A stretch of 64,000 nt of DNA, taken from assembly GCA_963665115.1 (NCBI GenBank), contig OY762007.1, positions 3,264,001-3,328,000 on the forward strand, in the 5' to 3' direction. The first letter of the stretch is position 1. The number at the start of each line of letters is the position of its first letter. Below are positions 7,504 to 19,932 of the stretch, in pieces. The position numbers and the translations under genes are program-made. The notes beneath the pieces were generated by a model, which was given only the letters and a program-made list of their open reading frames with translations, searched no databases and was not told the origin of the DNA. The stretch is from an uncultured Rivularia sp. (GTDB taxonomy: Bacteria > Cyanobacteriota > Cyanobacteriia > Cyanobacteriales > Nostocaceae).

Positions 7504-8149
7504 TCATTGTCTATTAAGCCAAATACCCCTAAGCCCAGCGGAAGAAGCACCTTCATAATCTTCCTTAACGCTATCGCCGATATGCCATGCAGCCTCTGGT
7601 AGACAATTGTGTTTTTCGAGCGCGATCGCAAATATCTTTTGGTTGGGTTTGGCTGCACCCGACTGGGTAGAAATGGTGATGGAACGAAAATAATCTCTTA
7701 ATTCTAAAGCTTGTAAAACCGAGTAAATTCGGGAATCGAAGTTAGATAATATCCCTAATTCGATTCCTTTATTTTGCCAATTTTTTAGCGATTTTAGGAC
7801 ATCGGGATAAACGAAACCAAGGATCTCCTGTGCCAAAGTGGATGTAAACTTCGCTGAAGAAAGCCGAAAAATCATCAAATTTGTGTAAAACACCAGCTTG
7901 CTCAAAGGTGGTTTGAGTTATGCGATGCCACCATGCAAACTCGCGTTGTGGAATATCTTGTTCTTGTACGTTAGGAAAAACTGGCGGTGGTGAAGCTTTA
8001 AAACTTTGAAAAAAGGTTTGATTCAAAGTAGCTGGTGAAGTTTCCACGCCAAATTCTCGGGCAATTTGACTATAAACATCGCCAACACTACCTTTAATAC
8101 CAAAGAGCGTTCCTACTGCATCTAAAAAAATGACTTTCGGCTGTTTCAT
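7504..8149 (-). CDS. HAD-IA family hydrolase (REG-2-like); +1 frameshift at 7814-7816
   Basis: FLDAVGTL motif I, ILSNFDSR motif II, KP..IF, HIGDS..EDY motif IV; deleting one base restores DPWFVYPDV. Confidence 0.88.
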
Positions 8150-9721: not shown

Positions 9722-9791
9722 ATAACGGCTTTCTTCATTGTCAGAAAATGGCATAAACTGCCATAATAAAGTCAAAGAGTCTGAAAAAGCG

Positions 9792-10064
9792 ATGAAAAGT
9801 ATTAATATTTCCCTACCAGATATGATGCGTGCTTACGTAGAAGAACAGGTTGCGGATGGTTGCTATAGCACCATTAGCGAATATTTCCGCGAGTTAGTGC
9901 GTCAAGATCAAAAACGTAAAGCCAAGGAACATTTAGAGACTTTATTGTTAGAAGGGTTGAATTCTGGAAGTGCAACACCATTAACCGAGCAAGATTGGGA
10001 TGATATTCGTCAAGCGGTGCGTTCAAAAGTTCAAGGGGACAAAGGTTTAAATACCAATGGGTAA
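9792..10064 (+). CDS. ParD-family (RHH) antitoxin
   Basis: MKSINISLPD.MRAYVEEQVADG.YSTISEYFRELVRQDQ..LLLEGLNSG; overlaps toxin start. Confidence 0.88.
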   Translation: MKSINISLPDMMRAYVEEQVADGCYSTISEYFRELVRQDQKRKAKEHLETLLLEGLNSGSATPLTEQDWDDIRQAVRSKVQGDKGLNTNG

Positions 10065-10386
10065 TGTTTATAAGCATCCCCAGGTTATCCGTGACTTAAT
10101 TGATTTGGCGACTTATATTGCTCAGGATAATATGAATTTTTCGGACAAGTTTTTGACTGCTGCTGAAGAAACCTTTAAACAATTAGCTCAAACTCCAAAA
10201 ATGGGGAAAGTGCGTGAATTTGATAATCCGAATTTAGCTGATGTTCGTCAACAACCAATTAAGGGATTTAAAAATTATTTAGTTTTTTATCTGACAAAAG
10301 ATAGTGATGTAGAAATTTTGAGAGTTTTGCACGGTCGGAGAGATATTGATACTATTTTTGATGAAGATTTGGGAGAAGAAAATTAG
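10057..10386 (+). CDS. RelE/ParE family toxin
   Basis: DLIDLATYIA..P.MG..YLVFY..VEILRVLHGRRDI ParE signature. Confidence 0.9.
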   Translation: MGNVYKHPQVIRDLIDLATYIAQDNMNFSDKFLTAAEETFKQLAQTPKMGKVREFDNPNLADVRQQPIKGFKNYLVFYLTKDSDVEILRVLHGRRDIDTIFDEDLGEEN

Positions 10387-10475: not shown

Positions 10476-12350
10476 TTAAAAACTAACCCTCCCTTCCAAC
10501 TTCACCCGCATTTTCCCCCCAACACCTTTCACCCTCTCCAAATCTTCCAAAGAATCAAAACGCTTTTCCCGACGTGCTTTAATAATCCGCTCAGCTAACT
10601 TCTTCCCCACCCCAGGAAGCGTTACCAATTCTTCCACCGTAGCTGTATTTACATTAATAATTACCTTTTCTGCAAATGTAGAAGGCGCTTTAATTTCCCC
10701 ACATTCACTTTCTTCCTGCTTAACCTTCTTCTCAATCCTTCGAGGAATCCCAAATTCCGCATTAACATAAAGTCTTTCAAATTCCCTCGCATAATGAGCG
10801 GCAATTTTGGGGTTTTCAATCACCAAAACAGTTTCATCATTTCCCGTATTTGCTGCTTCCGTCCAATTATGGGAACCTGTAATTACAGTTTTTGTATCGA
10901 TGACAGCATATTTATGATGCAATAGATCGCCACTCGTTAATAAAGGTACCCCAACAGAATTAATTGGATTCCGCCAAGGTTGGTTATTCAGTTCGTATTT
11001 ACATTTATTGCTCAAAGCTACACCCGTCAGATCCAAACCTTCACTATAGAAACGGTAAGCAAAATCTGGCTCCAATAAAGTCCGAATTTTCACCTTTACT
11101 TCGTGACGTGTTTCTAAAATATTGCTCAAACGTTGGGCTGAAAATACAAATAATGCAGAATCAATAGAATTTTCTGCTGAATTTAATGTTTTACCAATTA
11201 ACCCATTACTGCTGTCAATCCAAAGTTTTGTAGGAGAAGTGGGGGAGAAATTAACCGTTACCTTGTTATTTCCAAAAGAAACTTCCTGAAAATCACGAGT
11301 AGGTTTTTGTAAACCAAACTTACTATCAAATTTACCTCCGACTCCATCACCCCACATGAGATTAAATTCTTTTGTAAAAATATCGGCTAATTCAACACTA
11401 TCGATTTTAATTAAATTATTAACATTACCTAAACTGTCATAATTGCTGTAATCGCCATGAATACCGGATAATGTGAAATTTGCCGAAGTTACAATTACAA
11501 AGCGATTATCTATAATAATAAATTTATGATGCATCAAACCGCTACCTTTTGAACCATCGGCGGTATCATCAATTAAAGGTATTTTAGAATTCTGTAATAT
11601 TTTTAAAGCATCTCTTTCGTTGATTTCTTCTTCGGAAAGTGTACCGTCTTCATTAGTATCGGCAAAATTTGTAAATTCCTGATATCGCTTGATTTCTCTG
11701 GCTTTTAACTTGCTTAATTCTTGCGGCGTATAATCGCTCCAAGCACGACTATAGTTATTTTCCAAAATTACTCTTACTTTGACTCCCGCTTGATGTTTCT
11801 TCGCTAATGCTTGTGCGACTAAAGGTAAACGTAATTCTTGTACAGCAACATCTATCGTAAATTCAGCTTGAGAAACTGCATCAATAATTATTTTTTCTAA
11901 ATTATCTCCCTTACGGATTTTCTCACGGTAAGGTTCTTGATATTCAGAACTTTGAGAATGATTAAAATAAACCTGTATTGATGAATCTTGTGGAAGTGGT
12001 TTTAATAATTTTTTATTAGATGTGGCTTGCTGACAAGCAGTTAGGGGTAATATCAGTAGAAATAAATAATATAGATATCCGTAGATAAATAAATTAGTAG
12101 TGCGAGCATCTTGCTCGCTAGTAGTATTAAATTCTTGCTCGCTAGTAGTATTAAATTCTTGCTCGCTAATGGTATTAAATTCTTGCTCGCTAGTAGTATT
12201 AAATTCTTGCTCGCTAGTAGTATTAAATTTTTGCTCGCTAATGGTATTACAATCTTTATTGCTAAGTGTATTAAGTTCTTTATTACTAGACAAGGTATTA
12301 AAAATATTTTTCACAGGTTGAGATAGTTTCGAGAAAAATTTCACGGTCAT
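10476..12350 (-). CDS. phospholipase D-like nuclease with C-terminal ComEA-type HhH domain (cyanobacterial ComA-like competence protein), probable lipoprotein
   Basis: two HKD motifs (MHHKFIIID, LHHKYAVID), INVNTA..EL..LPGVG..LA..II HhH, LPLTAC lipobox. Confidence 0.88.
   Translation of the reverse strand: MTVKFFSKLSQPVKNIFNTLSSNKELNTLSNKDCNTISEQKFNTTSEQEFNTTSEQEFNTISEQEFNTTSEQEFNTTSEQDARTTNLFIYGYLYYLFLLILPLTACQQATSNKKLLKPLPQDSSIQVYFNHSQSSEYQEPYREKIRKGDNLEKIIIDAVSQAEFTIDVAVQELRLPLVAQALAKKHQAGVKVRVILENNYSRAWSDYTPQELSKLKAREIKRYQEFTNFADTNEDGTLSEEEINERDALKILQNSKIPLIDDTADGSKGSGLMHHKFIIIDNRFVIVTSANFTLSGIHGDYSNYDSLGNVNNLIKIDSVELADIFTKEFNLMWGDGVGGKFDSKFGLQKPTRDFQEVSFGNNKVTVNFSPTSPTKLWIDSSNGLIGKTLNSAENSIDSALFVFSAQRLSNILETRHEVKVKIRTLLEPDFAYRFYSEGLDLTGVALSNKCKYELNNQPWRNPINSVGVPLLTSGDLLHHKYAVIDTKTVITGSHNWTEAANTGNDETVLVIENPKIAAHYAREFERLYVNAEFGIPRRIEKKVKQEESECGEIKAPSTFAEKVIINVNTATVEELVTLPGVGKKLAERIIKARREKRFDSLEDLERVKGVGGKMRVKLEGRVSF
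12111..12305. repeat. 24-bp tandem repeat (TTGCTCGCTAGTAGTATTAAATTC; 6 good + 2 degenerate units) in the 5' coding region of the comA-like gene
   Basis: units at 12111, 12135, 12159, 12183, 12207, 12231, degenerate 12255, 12279; encodes (EFNTTSEQ)n. Confidence 0.92.
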
Positions 12351-12566: not shown

Positions 12567-15221
12567 TTAATCTATTTTCACCCGAAACCGAATAAAACCA
12601 AAATTATTACCAAGAGTATGGTTGATAGTACCGAGATTACCAATCACTGCTCCCGTGGGATTATCTTGATTGGGACAGAAATTATTAGCGGGAAGCTGAG
12701 TTCCTGGAGCAAAAAAGCTACCGTTATCTGCATCATCGTTATTAGTATTAGCAGTCACTGTATTTGATAAATTCACAGAAATACCGCTACCAGAACCGAA
12801 ACTATCAGCTACAAAACTGGTTCCATTCGGAATTGGATCGCAAAATCTAACGTCTTCTACTGAACGATTCCCATCCGCAAGGAAATACATCGTATATTCA
12901 ACTTCGTCACCTCTTTCTAAGGGTAATTGTGGACTTATATCGAATACTCCTACTGGTGAGATTTGAAACCAACCGGATAAATTATCGATCGGGTCGTTGG
13001 GGTCATCAATGAAAGAATCGAAATTAATCCCACTAATAGGAACGCCATTTCTAAATACGTTAGTAATTCTTTTGAGTCCACGTAAACGTTCGGGGTCAGC
13101 AGGTGTATCGCTTCCCACCTGTACATCTTCATCAGGGTTCGCGGGGTCGTAACTTACACTTTTGGTGGTATTAGTAGCATCAGTATAAGTCGCAGTTGCG
13201 GGGTTATTGTAAACACCATTAGGTGCGTTTTCGTCAATATCAGTAGTAAATGTAATTGCAACGCTACCACCACCAGGAATACTGAAAGCACCAAAATCTG
13301 CAACTTCTGCACCATCGGTTGGATTGCTCGTACTAATACGAGTAGAGCCTCCGTTTAGAGTAATGGTGGGATTAGTGGAAGCATCGAAAGTAAAACCGCT
13401 GGGCAAGGGGTCGGATATATTTACATTAGTAGCTACGGACAAATTTGCAGCATTGGCAACTGTAATCGTATATGTAGCTTTCCCAGGTTTGATAATTGGG
13501 CCTGGGGTAGAAGTAGTTTTGTTAATAGTTAATTCTGGTAGCAGACATTCTGCACCCGAACTAACGCCGTTAGGATTAACAATATTAGAACTAGTACCGT
13601 TACTACCAGCAGTTGCACCAAAGTTTTGACTGGGATCTATAGGTTCGCCAGTAGCACCTGATAAGCCGCCATTTGCATTGACAACTGCACCAGGACTAGT
13701 AACAATAACCCCACCACCACCACCACCACCAGGACCGTGAGGTTCTCTGGCTAATGCGTCACCACCTTTACCACCGTTAGCAGTTACTGTAAGACCCGTA
13801 AGGTTATTATTGAGAGCGGATACTACTACACTACCACCGGCTCCTCCTCCTCCTCCTCCATCAGTTCGGGCTTCTGAAGCACTGGCACCGTTAGCATTTA
13901 TAACACCACTACCACTGACGCTAGCAGTGCGAATAAATGTTATACCACCACCCGCAGCACCACTACTTGATAGACCATCAGGAAGAACGCTGTTTGAATC
14001 GTTAGTCGTTCCCGCTCCTCCTCCTCCTCCTAATACTATACGATTACTTGTAGAGGGAAAAACGGCACCACCAAAACCACCTGTATAATACTCAGACCTG
14101 TAAGTTCTACCCCCCAAACCACCAGCACCGCCATTTCCACCACCTCCACCACCAGCGTTTTCACCGTTGAAAAATACGTCTCGGGGTCTAGGTTCAAATC
14201 TAGAGGGTGTGCCGTCAGTAGCTCCACCACCAGCGTTTCCAGGCGCTCCACGACCGTATGAACCGTTAGGATAACCTTCAATCCCTGTATCTGGTTCTAG
14301 ACTAGTAGTTGTAGAATTAAACAGGTATCTTGGCGTACCAGCAGTTCCTTCACCTTTAGAACCGTTTGCAGCCCTATCTGATGAAGTTCTGTAATCAGTT
14401 GGTTCTTCTGGTGCTACAAAGGGGGGCACAGGAGACAAAGGTATTCCATTAAGTCTTCGTCCACCACCACCACGAAAACCTTTACCACTAACATCTACAG
14501 TCGCGTTATTCAAGTTTAAGTTATCGGCAACATCATAAGCTAAAATACCCCCGGTCGTACCATTCCAACGACTTGCTGTTAATCCGGAAGTAATAGTAGC
14601 GCTGGTATGTTGTGGTACGCGAATCACCTGATAAGTTCTTTGTCCTTGGGTACCAAAAGGAGCATTGCTGTAGGAATTAATCAGTCCTCCTCCATTTGTT
14701 CCTTCAATTGTTACCGAACCGCTACTAGCATCTCCCCTGGCGACAACGTATTCGTAATTACCAGCAGTAAAGTTAGTGTTGAGATTACCGCTAGCAGCGT
14801 TGGCAGATGGGGCAATAGTTTGGATCTCAGTTAGACTGCTGTCAGCAACATCATTGCCATTACCATCCCCATAAGCATCAGTATTACTTGAATCAATCTC
14901 GGCTCCCTGCATTTGAATAACCAGCAACAAGTCGCCATCTTGAATTTGTGTTGATGCACCCGTGGAAGTTCCCACCGGAATAGAAGTTGCACCAGCATTT
15001 ACATCAGCCGTACCGGGGTAATAAGTATTAATAATCCCAGTAAGATTGTTCCCCGCTCCATCTTTGCCAGGTACTGCACATAATCTTGGTGATGTGGTTT
15101 GTGCTGCAACTTGGGAAAAGTTCGCTTCACTTAATAACAGCACTTGATAGCTACAGGTTGTGAATAATAAAGCAAAGCTACGAATTAATTTAGATTTAAA
15201 TGATTTAATCGATGATTTCAT
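12567..15221 (-). CDS. secreted glycine-rich DUF11 domain surface protein (putative adhesin)
   Basis: signal-like N-terminus, GDLLLVIQMQGA domain, multiple poly-Gly runs, DUF11 (LTINKTT..ATYTITVAN..ISDPLPSGFTF), C-terminal KRIT..GDEVEYT..CDPIP..GFIRFRVKID module. Confidence 0.82.
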   Translation of the reverse strand: MKSSIKSFKSKLIRSFALLFTTCSYQVLLLSEANFSQVAAQTTSPRLCAVPGKDGAGNNLTGIINTYYPGTADVNAGATSIPVGTSTGASTQIQDGDLLLVIQMQGAEIDSSNTDAYGDGNGNDVADSSLTEIQTIAPSANAASGNLNTNFTAGNYEYVVARGDASSGSVTIEGTNGGGLINSYSNAPFGTQGQRTYQVIRVPQHTSATITSGLTASRWNGTTGGILAYDVADNLNLNNATVDVSGKGFRGGGGRRLNGIPLSPVPPFVAPEEPTDYRTSSDRAANGSKGEGTAGTPRYLFNSTTTSLEPDTGIEGYPNGSYGRGAPGNAGGGATDGTPSRFEPRPRDVFFNGENAGGGGGGNGGAGGLGGRTYRSEYYTGGFGGAVFPSTSNRIVLGGGGGAGTTNDSNSVLPDGLSSSGAAGGGITFIRTASVSGSGVINANGASASEARTDGGGGGGAGGSVVVSALNNNLTGLTVTANGGKGGDALAREPHGPGGGGGGGVIVTSPGAVVNANGGLSGATGEPIDPSQNFGATAGSNGTSSNIVNPNGVSSGAECLLPELTINKTTSTPGPIIKPGKATYTITVANAANLSVATNVNISDPLPSGFTFDASTNPTITLNGGSTRISTSNPTDGAEVADFGAFSIPGGGSVAITFTTDIDENAPNGVYNNPATATYTDATNTTKSVSYDPANPDEDVQVGSDTPADPERLRGLKRITNVFRNGVPISGINFDSFIDDPNDPIDNLSGWFQISPVGVFDISPQLPLERGDEVEYTMYFLADGNRSVEDVRFCDPIPNGTSFVADSFGSGSGISVNLSNTVTANTNNDDADNGSFFAPGTQLPANNFCPNQDNPTGAVIGNLGTINHTLGNNFGFIRFRVKID

Positions 15222-15349
15222 AATTGCTAAGAGGGGGAGAGGGGGGAGAGGGGGAAGAGAGGGGAGAGGGGGAGATGGGGAGACAACGGGAAATAATAAC
15301 TATTAATTCTTAACTCCTAACTCCTAACTCCTCACCTTTGACCTTTAAC

Positions 15350-18300
15350 CTATAACCTTTGACCTTTGACTGATTCTTGCTGCTGCGGTGGTGCTACTTT
15401 TTGTCTGCCGAATCCACCAAATAGTTCGTTGATTTTGAAGCTGATATTAAGATAGGGGCCACCTGCGGAACGATAACCTGTAAAATCGCGGTCATCTGCA
15501 CTACCAAAGGCATAACCGACACCAACCCGGAAATCTGGTGTGAGGTAATATCCAGCTTCTACGGCTACACCAAATTCGTTGTAATCTTCCGTAAGTTGAC
15601 CAATCCAACGTCCTTCTACTGCTAAATCTGTGCGATAGCCTAATTGATAATTAGCTCTTAGTTGCGCTAAGTTGATGCTGCTTTTACTAGTAAAATTATT
15701 AGCTAAATAACTATTGCTGTTACGGAAAGCGTATTTACCGTAAAATTCCCATCGCCAACTTGGTGCGTAAATCGCTTCTGCTGAAAGAAGATGATCGATC
15801 GCACCATTTCCGCTTCCGAATAATAAGGTATCGGGTGTTGTTGAAGGATTTTGGCGATATTCGTATTTAAGCAAGGCGTTTAATTTATCGCTTTTAATAT
15901 CGCGATACGCTAAACCGACTCTAAGATTGGCTGTATCTGCTAATCCCTCTAATAGCTGATTTGCTCCACCGGCTTGTTTGTACCTTACTGCTGCGGTTAA
16001 TGCTGGCGAAATTTTACCCGCAACACCTGCGGTAATTACTGTGTTGTTTCCTTGGTTTCCATCACGATATTCAAAACGAGCGTTGGCGTTGAAGTTGGGA
16101 TTATCTGTATATGCCATGCCGATACTATAAGTACTTCCCTCGAATAAACCTAGAGAAGAAGCACTTTGTCCGGTGGCATAGGGTTGAGCAAATTTAATAC
16201 CTGTTGCAGTGCTGCTAAAAATATCCTTAAATACTCGTTCGTAACCCAAATCTAGTTTTAATCCGGGTGCTAAACGAATGCCCTGATTTAACCCTATGGA
16301 ACCTCGATCGTTCATACCGTCGATACCCGAAAGTACCGAGTAGCGTCCGCTGATACTGGTGTCTTCTGAAAACTTATGTTCAACCAGAGTATCCAAACTG
16401 GTGATGTTATTACCTCTTAATAAACCACCATCAAAGAATTGATGGGCTAACCGCATTGTTACGCCAGGATACAGCGCCCAATCTAAGCCAAGGGTTGTCC
16501 GGTTGGGATAAAGAGCATCGCTATCTTCAAGATTTAATTCGTTTTGAGCGCGGAAATTTAAAGACTCAGTTAATGGAACATTAAGACTGGATACTAATTG
16601 ACTGGCAGTTCCCTCAAATTGATTGCTAACTCTATCTTCACGAGAACGATTGACGTATTCAAGGCTTAAATCCGATTCTCCGATTTTTTGCTGAATACCC
16701 GCTCTTACCGTACTCAAAGAGTTATCAACTTGACTTCCGGGTGTAGGTAGAGGTTGGGGATTAAATAAATCGAATAATTCGGTTCTTTGGGCTGGAGCTA
16801 TACCGAAATTTTCTTCATGGTCGTAACCAGCTTTTAAGCTAGTTGTACTGCCAATCTTAGCGGCAACATCTGCACCATATCGAGTTTGTCCTGGCGCAAA
16901 ACTCCAGGTGGCATTATTCGCAAAGTTTTCAGTTACCGAACGGTAATAAGCTTTTGATTTAAAGCCACTACCAATGTTTCCATTCGCTTCTATACGGTAA
17001 GCAGAACCACTGACATCGCCAAAATTGAGAGTATTATGTTGCGATCGCGCATATTCACCCAGGATAAATCCCGATCCAAGAGGGGCATAGAAATCAACTC
17101 CGTAAAGTTCAAAGTCTTGCGCTCCCTGCTCTTCTTTTAAATAGCTACCTCCCAAAAATGCGGTTTTATCTGGGTTTGAATTACCATTTCTTAAATTTAA
17201 TTGCAGTCTACCTCCATAAAGCTGACTATCTTCACCAGCTTCGTTTTGATAAGTAACTACAATGCGATTTACTAAAGTTGCTTCAAAAGCATTTAATTCG
17301 GTAGCGAGAATCGGATTACGGAATAAAATTGTTCCTCTGTCATAATCAATTTCATAATCAGCACCCCGATACAAAGCTTTGCGTTTAACCACCGTACCCG
17401 GACGATTTATTTCTTCTGATTCGATAAAAATGCTTTCGCTACCGGGAATTACAAGCCTACGAGAAACGAAATAATAACCGCTTGTTCCATCGGGAGTAAT
17501 AGTATCTCGTTGAAAACCTTGGATATTGTTGGCAAATAATCCCGTTACCTGCAAATTACCTAAATTAAAATTCCCTTTAAAACCGTGCAGTTGTCTGGTG
17601 GTAGCACTGTAAAGCTGGGATTGTCTGGAAAATTCTTGGGTATTGTAATCACCCCACATGAAATAATCGGCTTCCGCTCCTTTAATATTAGGAGTACGTT
17701 CGATGCGAGCATAAACGCTATCTGTAGAAGGAGCAGTACTAGTTACCGTTGAATCATCACCGTAAACGGGATATTGTTTTTCACAAGATTGAATGCCACC
17801 GAAAAGACGATTGTCACCATTACAATCTTGATTCAAAGGGCGATCGCTGTTGTAAGCTCCGGTAAATAACCATTCTCCAACTTTACCTGTAGCAAATACC
17901 GCCGCATCCAAATCTACAACTGTATCTTTATCAATTTCTTCAGGGTTAACAAAATCGCGGAAACTACCCCAATAGTCAGTACCACCAGCCCCAATTCTTA
18001 AATTTACAACCCCCGTTGCCAAAGAAGGGCGCAAATTAGTCACAAATTCAACGTAGCTAACTGCTCCTAAATCCAGATGGGGAGAAGTCTTTTTACCATA
18101 GATAGTGGCGCTAACTTTAACACTTTGAGCTTGATTCCCTGCTTGTAAAGTAGCCGTAAATTGCCCACCGCGAGCCAAAACTTGAAACCCTGGTGCATCT
18201 GGCTTGTAGTCTGCACCGATGAATTTACCGGCATTAGTAGCTAAAGTAACGATGACATCTTGCTTAATTAACTCGCCATTTTCGTCGGTAATATTACCTT

Positions 18301-19003
18301 TAAAATCAATATTAGAACGTCCATCAGCCGGAATTCTTGGTTCTCCAACGGGATTAATAGAAATCCTGGTTTTTTGTTCTTGAGAAATTACTTTAAGGCT
18401 AACAGGATTACCACCTTGAGCCTGAGCAGTAATTGTATTTTCGCCCTTGGATAAAGGAACGTTATACCAAATTGTAGTATGCAGCTTTTGTTCTTCGTCT
18501 TTATGAACGTAACGACTTAAATCATTGTCTATTTGTTTACCATTTATAGTTAGCTCAATTTTGGCGCTGGGATGATGCTGAATCGCTATATTAGTAGTAT
18601 CAGCAGTAGTTACACTAGCTTGAGGAGTAATAATACTAAGTTCGTTTACGAGTGATGAAGGAGCAGAAGGATTTTGTATCAGTTGTTGTTTTTGCTTATT
18701 TTCTTCAAAGTTAATATCTTTTGATTTACTGCCATTCTCGGAAATCGTATTAATTAAAACTTCCTGTTTATCTTCTCTTTCTACAGTAGGAGTTGCTAAT
18801 TCTTCCGTTTGACTAGTTGATGGCGAGAATAAAACTTCGTTATCGTTTTCTACATCTAAATTTGTTTTTGGTAAATCCGAATTATCTGCTGTATTTTTTT
18901 TAATAACTATACTTTGTGCCGATACGCTGACTGTAGGTAATACTATCACTGCGCTACAAGCAGTTAATATTAAATCTCGCTTGTTTAAACTTAAATTTTT
19001 CAT
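15350..19003 (-). CDS. large outer-membrane beta-barrel protein with N-terminal Ig-like domains (DUF11-operon associated)
   Basis: signal peptide from ATG 19003 (purine-rich RBS upstream), invasin/Big_1-like IPADGRS segment, long C-terminal region of alternating amphipathic strands ending ..PYLNISFKINELF. Confidence 0.75.
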   Translation of the reverse strand: MKNLSLNKRDLILTACSAVIVLPTVSVSAQSIVIKKNTADNSDLPKTNLDVENDNEVLFSPSTSQTEELATPTVEREDKQEVLINTISENGSKSKDINFEENKQKQQLIQNPSAPSSLVNELSIITPQASVTTADTTNIAIQHHPSAKIELTINGKQIDNDLSRYVHKDEEQKLHTTIWYNVPLSKGENTITAQAQGGNPVSLKVISQEQKTRISINPVGEPRIPADGRSNIDFKGNITDENGELIKQDVIVTLATNAGKFIGADYKPDAPGFQVLARGGQFTATLQAGNQAQSVKVSATIYGKKTSPHLDLGAVSYVEFVTNLRPSLATGVVNLRIGAGGTDYWGSFRDFVNPEEIDKDTVVDLDAAVFATGKVGEWLFTGAYNSDRPLNQDCNGDNRLFGGIQSCEKQYPVYGDDSTVTSTAPSTDSVYARIERTPNIKGAEADYFMWGDYNTQEFSRQSQLYSATTRQLHGFKGNFNLGNLQVTGLFANNIQGFQRDTITPDGTSGYYFVSRRLVIPGSESIFIESEEINRPGTVVKRKALYRGADYEIDYDRGTILFRNPILATELNAFEATLVNRIVVTYQNEAGEDSQLYGGRLQLNLRNGNSNPDKTAFLGGSYLKEEQGAQDFELYGVDFYAPLGSGFILGEYARSQHNTLNFGDVSGSAYRIEANGNIGSGFKSKAYYRSVTENFANNATWSFAPGQTRYGADVAAKIGSTTSLKAGYDHEENFGIAPAQRTELFDLFNPQPLPTPGSQVDNSLSTVRAGIQQKIGESDLSLEYVNRSREDRVSNQFEGTASQLVSSLNVPLTESLNFRAQNELNLEDSDALYPNRTTLGLDWALYPGVTMRLAHQFFDGGLLRGNNITSLDTLVEHKFSEDTSISGRYSVLSGIDGMNDRGSIGLNQGIRLAPGLKLDLGYERVFKDIFSSTATGIKFAQPYATGQSASSLGLFEGSTYSIGMAYTDNPNFNANARFEYRDGNQGNNTVITAGVAGKISPALTAAVRYKQAGGANQLLEGLADTANLRVGLAYRDIKSDKLNALLKYEYRQNPSTTPDTLLFGSGNGAIDHLLSAEAIYAPSWRWEFYGKYAFRNSNSYLANNFTSKSSINLAQLRANYQLGYRTDLAVEGRWIGQLTEDYNEFGVAVEAGYYLTPDFRVGVGYAFGSADDRDFTGYRSAGGPYLNISFKINELFGGFGRQKVAPPQQQESVKGQRL

Positions 19004-19007
19004 ATTA

Positions 19008-19932
19008 TTAACGCCTCTCTCCAAAAGCTGGAGTGACAGCAAAATTGATTCTCGCCATACTTCCAGGAGCTAAACGCACCAAGCGAGATTGACTATTATT
19101 CTTGATTTTGTAAAGATTCGGAGCTTGAATATAGCCCGGTAAACTTGTATAGTCCAAAGTTGCAGTACGATTCCCCGAAATCACATTAGCTACCGAATAC
19201 ATTCCATTGGCATCAGTGAGAATGCGGTTGCCATCATCCATAAAAATTACCGCGTTAGGAACACCAGGCTCTCCCGCTTGCTGTTCCCCATCAAAGTTTT
19301 TATCAACAAAAACACGTCCAATTAAAGTCGCACAATCGGAAACAATTCCGGGACGAATTCTTAATAAATGGCTTGCAGTATTGCTTATAAGAGTTTCATT
19401 AGTAGCTACAGCCAAGTTTCTGCCACTTCCGCGCATCCCATCTGGCGTTACCGTCACGGCATAAACCACACTTAAAGTTTCTGCTGGTGGAATGCTACCA
19501 GCATAATTAATTGCAACCGTCCGATTTTGGGGCTTTGTAGTTGATACCGCAACTTCAGTTGTCGTACTTCCATTAGTTAAAGAAACCCTGCACCGATTTT
19601 TCTGCTAATTTCAAACCCAAAGGAAGGGTATCGTTAAGAGTTAAATTACTAGCCGATACCGAACCAGTATTACGAATTGCAACCCGATAAATTACAGTAT
19701 CTCCAGGCTCTGCGGCGCTTTTATTGGCAGTTTTAGTTATCTGTAAAGCCGCATCTCCGGCTCTGAAAGTCGTACTGTTAGTGTTGAAAGAGCCAATATT
19801 GCTACCTCCAAACACAGCTGTATTGGTAATTTCATCAGCAGTGACAGGTATAGCTCCCAAAACGATCGCCCCAGGAAGCCATAACGATAGTAGAAGGTTA
19901 ATATACCTCCACCGATTTATTCTTAATCTCAT
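19008..19932 (-). CDS. DUF11 + SdrD-B-like domain protein; +1 frameshift at 19583-19585
   Basis: signal peptide, LQITKTANKSAAEPGDTVIYRVAIRNTG..NDTLPLG DUF11; GRVFVDKNFDGEQQAGEPGVPN..TDANGMYS; deleting one base joins 19573-19932 to 19008-19469. Confidence 0.82.

Follow-up and report, generated by a model that had tools for sequence, protein, structure and literature searches.

We suggest, with somewhat better than even confidence, that the products of three neighboring genes, A, B, and C, in the window (the whole stretch of DNA that was analyzed, 64,000 nucleotides) form a surface system in which the adhesin C is chained to the adaptor A, likely by a covalent bond, and the chain is exported and anchored on the surface by the giant barrel protein B. 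In the best reading, the locus would be a minimal, short, shaft-less form of an undescribed pilus system. Its features are listed in Table 1.

The three genes are co-oriented on the minus strand, with gaps of 4 bp between A and B and of 128 bp between B and C, in agreement with the orientation and the first spacing given in the preliminary description. The signal peptides of A, B, and C are a judgement by eye from the N-termini. A promoter/terminator scan found fewer sites than in shuffles (15 vs 20.6 and 3 vs 6.8), and thus lends no support to co-transcription of A, B, and C.

Table 1. Features of the A-B-C locus, in window coordinates
Feature	Position	Strand	Basis or remark
Gene A, adaptor	19008..19932	-	About 307 aa when intact; frameshifted in assembly
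Order of A: signal peptide (by eye), orphan donor hairpin, complete CLIPPER/DUF11 domain, SdrD_B-like domain		-	Domain/homologue evidence
Donor beta-hairpin of A, residues 33-59	19756..19836	-	Predicted isopeptide Asn37 at 19822-19824
Single extra base breaking A	19583..19583	-	Pieces, relatives, sequencing runs
Gene B, 1217 aa	15350..19003	-	ATG at 19003
Order of B: signal peptide (by eye), low-complexity linker, two Ig domains, predicted barrel of about 38 strands		-	Model
Two Ig-like (intimin D0/Big-like) domains of B, residues 125-322	18038..18631	-	Model, structure match
Predicted barrel of B, residues 328-1192	15428..18022	-	38 strands, count of DSSP elements
93-residue module after strand 7 of B, residues 495-587	17243..17521	-	Holds SprA-like motif
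Gene C, 884 aa, tip protein	12567..15221	-	ORF, domain matches
Order of C: signal peptide (by eye), AgmC-N-like Gly-rich head, complete CLIPPER domain, truncated acceptor CLIPPER domain		-
Head of C, residues 42-560	13542..15098	-	Putative adhesin; similar to N-terminal AgmC
Internal complete CLIPPER domain of C	13122..13541	-	Lys568, Asp604, Asn673
C-terminal acceptor domain of C, residues 708-884	12570..13100	-	Lys717 and Asp795 present, Asn hairpin absent

A CLIPPER Domain Predicted to Be Split over Two Genes

The CLIPPER domain (DUF11, PF01345; PDB 9IFR) occurs in the stalks of Gram-negative adhesins, and the bond of its Lys/Asp/Asn triad is described as intramolecular, within one chain (PMC12617251, whose main text has no mention of "donor strand" or "cyanobacter"). 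Proteins A and C share the fold family and the triad with these adhesins, the predicted difference being that here one domain is divided between two genes.

Protein C was initially described as a large, adhesin-like, Gly-rich DUF11 protein, and this holds: DUF11 is matched at residues 564-684, the Gly content of residues 245-560 is 26%, and the head matches the N-terminal region of AgmC with E = 5e-37, which falls short of the family cut-off. In the last domain of C the Lys and Asp of the triad are present; the same-chain Asn strand is absent, and the motif is found at the N-terminus of A. All 18 cargo C-terminal domains compared (18/18) keep this Lys and Asp, and all stop before the Asn hairpin. 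No solved relative of C or of its last domain was found by sequence.

The DUF11 and SdrD-B-like domains originally noted in A were both recovered (E = 2e-11 and E = 4e-6, respectively, the latter under the cut-off). Among solved structures, the first match of the A profile is the CLIPPER structure 9IFR (E = 0.0011), with Lys67 and Asp101 of A aligned to its Lys and Asp, and this complete domain of A carries an Asn hairpin of its own. The motif Asn-x-Ala...Asn is invariant at the start of 13/13 intact short-type A proteins (eight of them from one genus) and recurs within the internal hairpin of A. The donor motif is present in 11/11 shaft proteins of longer loci, 12/18 A ORFs (including one spurious match in a mis-started ORF), 5/117 other ORFs, and 0/13 helpers; it is absent from C of the window. 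We predict that the closing strands missing from the last domain of C stand at the start of A, that is, that a single CLIPPER domain is split over the two genes.

A complex of the last domain of C with the intact A of a relative was modeled with a score of 0.89, the best of three controls reaching 0.01; the score mark was attained by 116 of 157 solved complexes and by 2 of 215 mismatched pairs. The runs agree in 93% or more of their contacts, and the partner pLDDT is at least 89. The modeled interface consists of the first 27 residues of A and four others, and Asp795 of C contacts donor positions 7-8; the Lys-Asn pair is absent among the best 25 contacts listed. Because the complex unites the two halves of a known fold, resemblance to solved CLIPPER/CnaA domains may account for the score. 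According to the model, pairing with A would complete the domain of C. By analogy with the solved CLIPPER triad, the link is likely a covalent bond between Lys717 and Asn37, with Asp795 as the putative catalyst.

An Extra Base in Gene A

Gene A had been taken as an intact ORF, which it is not: in the assembly, a single extra base near 19583 divides it into two pieces, 19573-19932 (119 aa) and 19008-19469. In the same genus, 11 loci were compared, of which three cover A incompletely, and A is intact in all eight that cover it fully (304-324 aa). The base is missing from sequencing runs X2 and X3, and there is no gap in X1 and X4 (four runs compared, 23 listed). Runs X2 and X3 are likewise free of the single extra bases at positions 7814 and 25560 that break two unrelated genes (three runs compared). 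Thus the extra base is probably a sequencing or assembly error, but the window copy of A may really be broken, since the base is present in X1 and X4 too. A programmed frameshift was ruled out, because the relatives of A are in frame. Both the split CLIPPER domain and the frameshift had been missed in the preliminary description.

A Predicted Outer-Membrane Barrel of about 38 Strands

The structure model bears out the early account of B as a protein of about 1217 aa with Ig-like domains followed by a long run of strands. We predict that B is an outer-membrane barrel of about 38 strands, a number obtained by counting DSSP elements in the model, without coordinates, and model geometry makes it about 66-72 Å across. 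The Ig domains match 6tpl (Z = 12.6, 2.0 Å) and gave the only matches in profile searches of B against solved structures; a sequence search against the same structures returned nothing for the barrel. No solved barrel is close to the model. Its best whole-model rows include 6r2q_B and SprA, and the whole-model TM in the SprA/usher comparison is 0.15-0.20. With these values and no family match, the idea that B belongs to the SprA-like or usher-like translocons was not upheld. The protein cluster atlas holds only unnamed or mislabeled clusters for the locus proteins.

Solan et al. 2021 (PMC8346858) predicted a superfamily of large barrels with 38 or 40 strands, 38 in family 003, and in their Table S1 the PDB homologues of families 002 and 003 are given as "6H3I_A fragment - 6R2Q_B". 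B resembles these families, as far as the accessible parts of that paper describe them, in its 38 strands, in having 6r2q_B and SprA among its best rows, and in a module that matches the 6h3i fragment, and it is probably a member of this superfamily (family 002/003). In those parts, a function or partner genes of the two families were not found, and the main text has no mention of DUF11, SdrD, SprA, or T9SS.

Some relatives of B are labeled "TonB-dependent receptor" in databases, as would be expected if B were a TonB-dependent or other nutrient receptor with unrelated neighbors. This is hardly credible, given that the TonB-receptor Pfam families have no match on B, the TM to TonB-dependent receptors is at most 0.17, and the Ig domains occupy the place upstream of strand 1 where a plug would be. 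With its approximately 38 strands B is not the 22-strand receptor with a plug against which it was to be checked, and a crude pattern gave no TonB-box-like match in residues 31-130, in line with the failure to recognize a TonB box by eye. The fixed linkage and fusion of B to A also argue against a receptor.

The Motif Module of B

The motif PGSESIFI, reported earlier for B, was located at residues 520-527, and the SprA-like motif ends at residue 561. The module that holds it folds like a SprA fragment (6h3i_A 263-746; Z = 7.0, 2.2 Å, 70 aa, 21% identity), and to this extent the likeness stood. However, this match has rank 13, behind 12 rows of phage or contractile-injection tail proteins. The fold is common to phage tail-fibre/neck modules and the SprA fragment, with phage matches as good or better, and the SprA likeness is therefore not diagnostic. 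The sequence profile of the module did not find SprA and had no credible Pfam match, and Foldseek returned nothing at E ≤ 0.001. Two of 30 distant B relatives match the SprA/Sov family model TIGR04189 at the motif, scoring 14 and 8 bits where the cut-off is 200 (E = 0.0045, reaching into the next two strands, and E = 0.29).

The module, the weak TIGR04189 matches, and the one C-terminal domain common to all cargo would fit a true SprA-type translocon, in which the last domain of C would be a T9SS CTD-like sorting signal and C, instead of being clipped to A, would be released or passed on. We consider this quite improbable, since neither TIGR04189 nor any other NCBIfam family is found on B at E ≤ 0.1, the whole-model TM to SprA is 0.15-0.18 with an rmsd of 36-38 Å, and phage proteins compete for the module. 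Moreover, the last domain of C is of the CLIPPER type, with no Pfam or NCBIfam match to the Por-secretion CTD, and the orphan hairpin on A and the C-A-type fusions would be left unexplained.

Fusions and Distribution

In 50 of 99 full-barrel representatives, A and B occur as one fused chain, as anticipated by the suggestion that A is a split N-terminal part of B. In these fusions A is N-terminal to strand 1 and, by strand alternation, on the periplasmic side; we assume that the chain must therefore thread the pore. B might instead be an anchor only, with C and A pairing, crossing by another route (for instance, type IV pilus/type II-like machinery), and docking from outside. A motor or energy link for B was not seen, and BsaA, a donor-strand isopeptide fibre, is secreted via type IV pilus proteins according to the accessible part of 10.1101/2024.11.04.621531. 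We find this unlikely, as the place of A on the chain of the barrel implies a periplasmic start, for which a pore is needed, and a barrel of such width would be excessive as a mere anchor.

In plasmid loci of Sinorhizobium and Pelagibacterium, a giant CLIPPER-repeat adhesin encoded immediately upstream of B ends in all of mature A, hairpin included (E = 3e-19 and 5e-19 in the two alphaproteobacterial loci). Among 151 genomes, which include kin and are not independent, B was found in 24, the last domain of C in 21, and the shaft in 17, 16 of them with B. In this survey, the last domain of C was seen only alongside B (21/21). Five genomes have B and the acceptor and no shaft or helper match, one of them being a single complete contig; in genome G141, B is present and an acceptor match is missing, and in genome G025, a partial shaft match occurs in the absence of B.

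Longer loci contain a small DUF11-like helper gene, which is absent from the three-gene locus of the window. The heads of C-type proteins vary widely and the last domain is kept, as for tip adhesins, which argues against the quite unlikely reading that the chain is non-covalent, or is a periplasmic envelope scaffold tied to B rather than a surface adhesin. That reading would agree with the top barrel match of B, which is SlpA, an envelope protein of Deinococcus (Z = 15.4, but with an rmsd of 14.6 Å), with the OmpA-domain gene included in many related loci, and with the absence of the bond in some DUF11 domains (PMC12617251). Against a non-covalent chain stand the invariant acceptor Lys and Asp and the replacement of the catalytic Asp in the helpers seen.

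Comparison with Known Systems

In chaperone-usher pili (type 1, P; FimD/PapC), as in the model of C and A, an incomplete Ig fold is made whole by a partner's N-terminal extension, the tip has no donor, the base has no acceptor, and an outer-membrane barrel serves as the platform. The differences are that the donor here is a two-strand hairpin rather than a single strand, that a covalent lock is predicted, and that B has about 38 strands whereas the usher barrel has 24. The usher family PF00577 has no match on B or in the genome (the E. coli positive control matched), and there is no PapD-type chaperone domain among the three genes. Classical autotransporters, with an N-terminal passenger and a C-terminal barrel, resemble the A-B fusions, and two-partner secretion, with a giant adhesin and one barrel gene, resembles the Sinorhizobium and Pelagibacterium loci; unlike the predicted A-C pair, neither is known to have a split-domain clip, and their barrels have 12 or 16 strands.

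The T9SS translocon SprA/Sov (6H3I; PMC10994853) has 36 strands and a PMF motor, and its lateral exit involves PorV. It shares with B a very large single-chain barrel, one small module, and cargo with a common C-terminal domain, but it is about twice as long as B and B has no family match and a CLIPPER-type cargo domain. Searches of the genome for GldM and SprA gave no match and had no positive control; for GldM, none of the control genomes matched. [quoted passage not shown] The isopeptide-locked donor strand is the predicted likeness to C-A; these fibres differ in their TasA-type or type-1-pilin-like folds, in that the organisms have no outer membrane, and in having no barrel.

Proposed Mechanism

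A, B, and C would cross the inner membrane by Sec, as their N-termini suggest. B would insert as a barrel whose width admits folded Ig domains, the SprA/phage-like module probably serving as its outer cap. The hairpin of A would fill the last domain of C and the Lys717-Asn37 bond would form, while the SdrD-like end of A may bind the N-terminal part of B, as the natural fusions suggest. The folded adhesin C would then cross the outer membrane via B and be held on the surface. In the longer loci, an added shaft subunit with both halves and the small helper without the catalytic Asp would turn the same scheme into a pilus.

We give about even chances to a wider reading taken as a whole: B forms the pore of a widespread and distinct outer-membrane system exporting folded Ig-chain proteins joined by enzyme-free intermolecular isopeptide bonds in cyanobacteria, Deinococcota, several proteobacterial classes, and Acidobacteria; the split domain is a natural "tag and catcher", used as an adhesin clip in three-gene loci and in a covalent pilus in five-gene loci; and the 38-strand barrel, larger than SprA, has common ancestry with it by way of a cap module that phage tails use as well. 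If true, this would assign a function to barrels whose predicted size exceeds that of every solved barrel and which are in print only as contact-map predictions. Bacteria with two membranes, in which, to our knowledge, no covalently linked pili have been established, would gain a new class of surface fibres and an export route. The form with three genes would be the smallest test case and a candidate adhesion system for mat-forming cyanobacteria, and the natural split isopeptide domain a possible protein-ligation tool.

No paper on this A-B-C system was found in the open literature, by a search that was not exhaustive (it missed Solan 2021) and left subscription papers outside. The "DUF11" matches in PMC3711429 are to DUF111, and those in the accessible part of PMC11821415 to DUF1102; in PMC13297417 a DUF11 protein was used for its signal peptide only. 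The old tag DR_B0037 is listed in a proteomics table (PMC5382914), and we did not count it as evidence for the Deinococcus locus. On pTT27 of Thermus thermophilus HB8 (TTH_RS10905-10925), a five-gene version of the system is found.

Organization of the Locus

The sequence comparisons and structural models considered here indicate that the adaptor gene A, the gene B encoding a giant predicted outer-membrane barrel, and the gene C encoding an adhesin-like tip or cargo protein form a real, conserved system, whose proposed mechanism is well constrained by computation. The genes are separated by 4 bp (A-B) and 128 bp (B-C). The arrangement of three co-oriented genes, the first two 4 bp apart, was seen in the preliminary description, and the domains and the motif reported there were recovered by family and motif searches. 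Signal peptides of A, B, and C were judged by eye.

In the window assembly, gene A is split by one extra base at 19583. Among four sequencing runs compared, this base is missing in X2 and X3, which are otherwise identical across the compared stretch around it, and no gap is seen in X1 or in the more divergent X4. Across 19.9 kb, the window carries three single-base insertions relative to X2 and X3 (7814, 19583, and 25560), each of them gene-breaking. Further, A is intact in all eight same-genus loci that cover it fully. The extra base in A is likely an assembly error, a real lesion being the less probable reading; the assembly seems to be rich in single-base errors.

Coordinates of the analyzed features (plain numbers, the window; G000, this genome; G025 and G141, other genomes; L030, L033, and L034, related loci)
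Feature	Location	Strand	Remarks
Gene A	19932-19008	minus	
Gene B	19003-15350	minus	1217 aa
Gene C	15221-12567	minus	884 aa
Second B locus	within G000:C1:365685-399300 and 959500-971500		long: shaft, helper, A, B, OmpA-domain gene, several cargo genes
Third B locus	within G000:C1:365685-399300 and 959500-971500		short: OmpA-domain gene, SdrD-repeat tip
Thermus thermophilus HB8 pTT27 locus	L033:11424-25780		five-gene version
Deinococcus radiodurans pMP1 locus	L034:9701-17910		three-gene version
Lone A-B fusion	L030:7656-11561 (G141)		
Shaft-like C-terminal part	G025:C1:1825475-1826494		within 2711-aa frame
HAD-like hydrolase gene	7504-8149		broken by extra base 7814
ParD/ParE toxin-antitoxin pair	9738-10386	plus	
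PLD-family protein gene	10476-12350	minus	C-terminal helix-hairpin-helix
GGDEF-like gene	20396-20952	minus	ends in other frame near 20500
240-aa ORF	23514-24236	minus	zero Pfam matches at E<=0.001
HD-domain-like membrane protein gene	25296-27843		broken by extra base 25560
TIGR04183 (T9SS CTD) matches	G000:C1:8065367-8065543, 2224079-2224255		weak, barely above cut-off

A CLIPPER Domain Split between C and A

The DUF11 domain is the CLIPPER domain, described in PMC12617251 as forming an internal Lys-Asn bond with Asp as the catalyst. The last domain of C is an acceptor, that is, it carries the Lys (Lys717) and the Asp (Asp795), neither of which varies among 18 related cargo domains, and all 18 end ahead of the Asn-bearing hairpin. 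An orphan copy of this hairpin, the donor, forms the N-terminus of A directly after the signal peptide. Its Asn-x-Ala...Asn motif is invariant in all 13 intact short-type A proteins, eight of them from the same genus (the pattern for cutting out the A N-termini was widened once), and recurs in A's own internal hairpin. Counted by protein class in 20 loci, the donor motif is present in 11/11 shaft proteins (subunits with both donor and acceptor) and in 12/18 A ORFs, where one match is spurious and three of the negatives are ORFs whose start was set at an internal Met. It occurs in 0/13 helpers (small DUF11-like proteins without the catalytic Asp), in 5/117 other ORFs, and in 4/21 proteins filed as tips; three of these four come from the two most distant loci and are of shaft or A type.

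When the last domain of C was modeled with an intact A from a relative, the complex score was 0.89, compared to 0.01 for the best control; the mark applied to such scores is passed by 116 of 157 solved complexes and by 2 of 215 mismatched pairs. The runs agreed in at least 93% of contacts, with partner pLDDT of at least 89. The predicted interface consists of the first 27 residues of A and four others, with Asp795 touching the donor strand; the Lys-Asn pair is missing from the 25 listed contacts. Since the two partners together make up a fold that is already known, the high score may stem from resemblance to that fold.

The order of the parts can be read from natural fusions. Among the best 150 of 1992 representatives, 99 contain the full barrel, and in 50 of these the C-terminal part of A is located upstream on the same chain, in agreement with the initial view of A as an accessory or split N-terminal subunit of B. 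Within this sample, a donor-like motif stands at the start of 32/50 fused versus 8/49 unfused full-barrel representatives. In two of five plasmid loci examined (Sinorhizobium meliloti and Pelagibacterium), a giant CLIPPER-repeat adhesin is encoded immediately upstream of B, and its C-terminus comprises the whole mature A; the "donor" there is merely the final hairpin of the CLIPPER repeat before it. Both kinds of fusion thus suggest that adhesin, A, and barrel are a single functional chain cut at varying places; in the window, the C/A cut falls inside a CLIPPER domain.

The Predicted Barrel

The AlphaFold2 model of B (residues 125-1217, 81 sequences in the input; pLDDT 81.5, pTM 0.74) contains two Ig domains followed by 38 long strands, counted from secondary-structure elements without coordinates, with a 93-residue module inserted after strand 7. 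At assumed shear numbers of 38-46, the barrel would be 66-72 A wide. Small barrels align over the first and last strands (VIA-align), which suggests that it is closed. No solved barrel fits the whole model, the best TM being 0.20, with TonB receptors reaching 0.17, SprA 0.15-0.18, and SlpA and FimD at most 0.16. By VIA-align, the leading matches are to SlpA (Z 15.4, rmsd 14.6 A), followed by ushers (Z 13.9, rmsd 10.8 A), all of them partial. Family-model searches for ushers, TonB receptors, and SprA gave zero matches in B, and a profile search found no usher genes in this genome. The proposal that B is a SprA-like or usher-like translocon is not supported at the level of family membership, and B, with about 38 predicted strands, is also set apart from TonB receptors.

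The SprA-like motif that inspired this proposal lies in the module, which was also modeled separately (pLDDT 91). Its best structural matches are phage neck and tail-fibre modules (top Z 8.8); SprA residues 263-746 rank 13 (Z 7.0, 2.2 A, 70 aa, 21% identity), and 2/30 distant B relatives weakly match the SprA model at the module position. The resemblance is therefore real, but local and not diagnostic, as phage modules match too. Families of predicted barrels with 38 and 40 strands were described by Solan et al. 2021 (PMC8346858), and the homologues given for them in the accessible text, a 6H3I fragment and 6R2Q_B, are also those of the B model. B probably belongs to these families, so that the barrel and the SprA fragment would have already been published, as predictions; no function for the families was found in that text.

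Proposed Mechanism

We suggest that C and A could be joined by a covalent bond, that A would dock on B, that export would proceed through B, and that the Gly-rich AgmC-like head of C (E 5e-37, under the family cut-off) would mediate adhesion. The proposed chain of steps as a whole appears moderately probable. Gene layout, the split domain, conserved residues, fusions, and co-occurrence derive from sequences, whereas barrel size and C-A pairing derive from structure prediction. The system would operate in the manner of chaperone-usher pili, and its fused forms in that of autotransporter or two-partner systems, but membership tests placed it in none of these classes. Donor-strand exchange is combined with an intermolecular isopeptide lock in BsaA (10.1101/2024.11.04.621531) and in an archaeal thread (PMC9715654), where the folds are different and an outer membrane is lacking. 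SprA, as described in PMC10994853, differs from B in size, lateral exit, and motor. A non-exhaustive search of the open-access literature, which had also missed Solan 2021, found no description of the A-B-C system.

Distribution of the System

Among 151 genomes of the phylum, kin among them not being independent, B was found in 24; the last domain of C occurred in 21, always together with B, and the shaft in 17, of which 16 also have B. The 20 loci include six short ones, 11 with shaft and helper, two distant variants, and one lone A-B fusion. Short loci, as in the window, where no helper gene was found, contain A, B, and tips, some with an OmpA-domain gene. Five genomes possess B and acceptors with no shaft or helper match, and hence the short form can stand alone. 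Three B loci are present in this genome, including a long one, so shaft subunits for the window locus could also be borrowed. Some cargo genes of the long locus bear both donor and acceptor, and at both additional B loci several genes are likewise fragmented.

The lone A-B fusion has no donor motif and its genome (G141) no acceptor match; possibly, the donor and acceptor halves were lost jointly. The genome with the shaft-like part in a 2711-aa frame (G025) has no B match.

Close relatives of B carry the labels Rivularia and other Nostocales, and further ones are labeled Acidobacteria and Deltaproteobacteria. Related operons were found in Thermus thermophilus HB8, Deinococcus radiodurans, and Acinetobacter haemolyticus, the first two representing versions of the system in experimentally accessible models. 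In Thermus, one end of the shaft protein is a donor and the other an acceptor.

Neighboring Genes

The two TIGR04183 matches are probably generic small beta domains. The GGDEF-like gene has a continuous orthologue in the related locus L032, and X2 and X3 show no indel near 20500, so this break may be real. The PLD-family gene, directly downstream of C here and also downstream of C in L032, showed no link to the system elsewhere; its putative N-terminal extension contains a short tandem repeat. In the ParD/ParE region, both X2 and X3 diverge from the window at 10021-10022, with a further difference in X2 at 10074.
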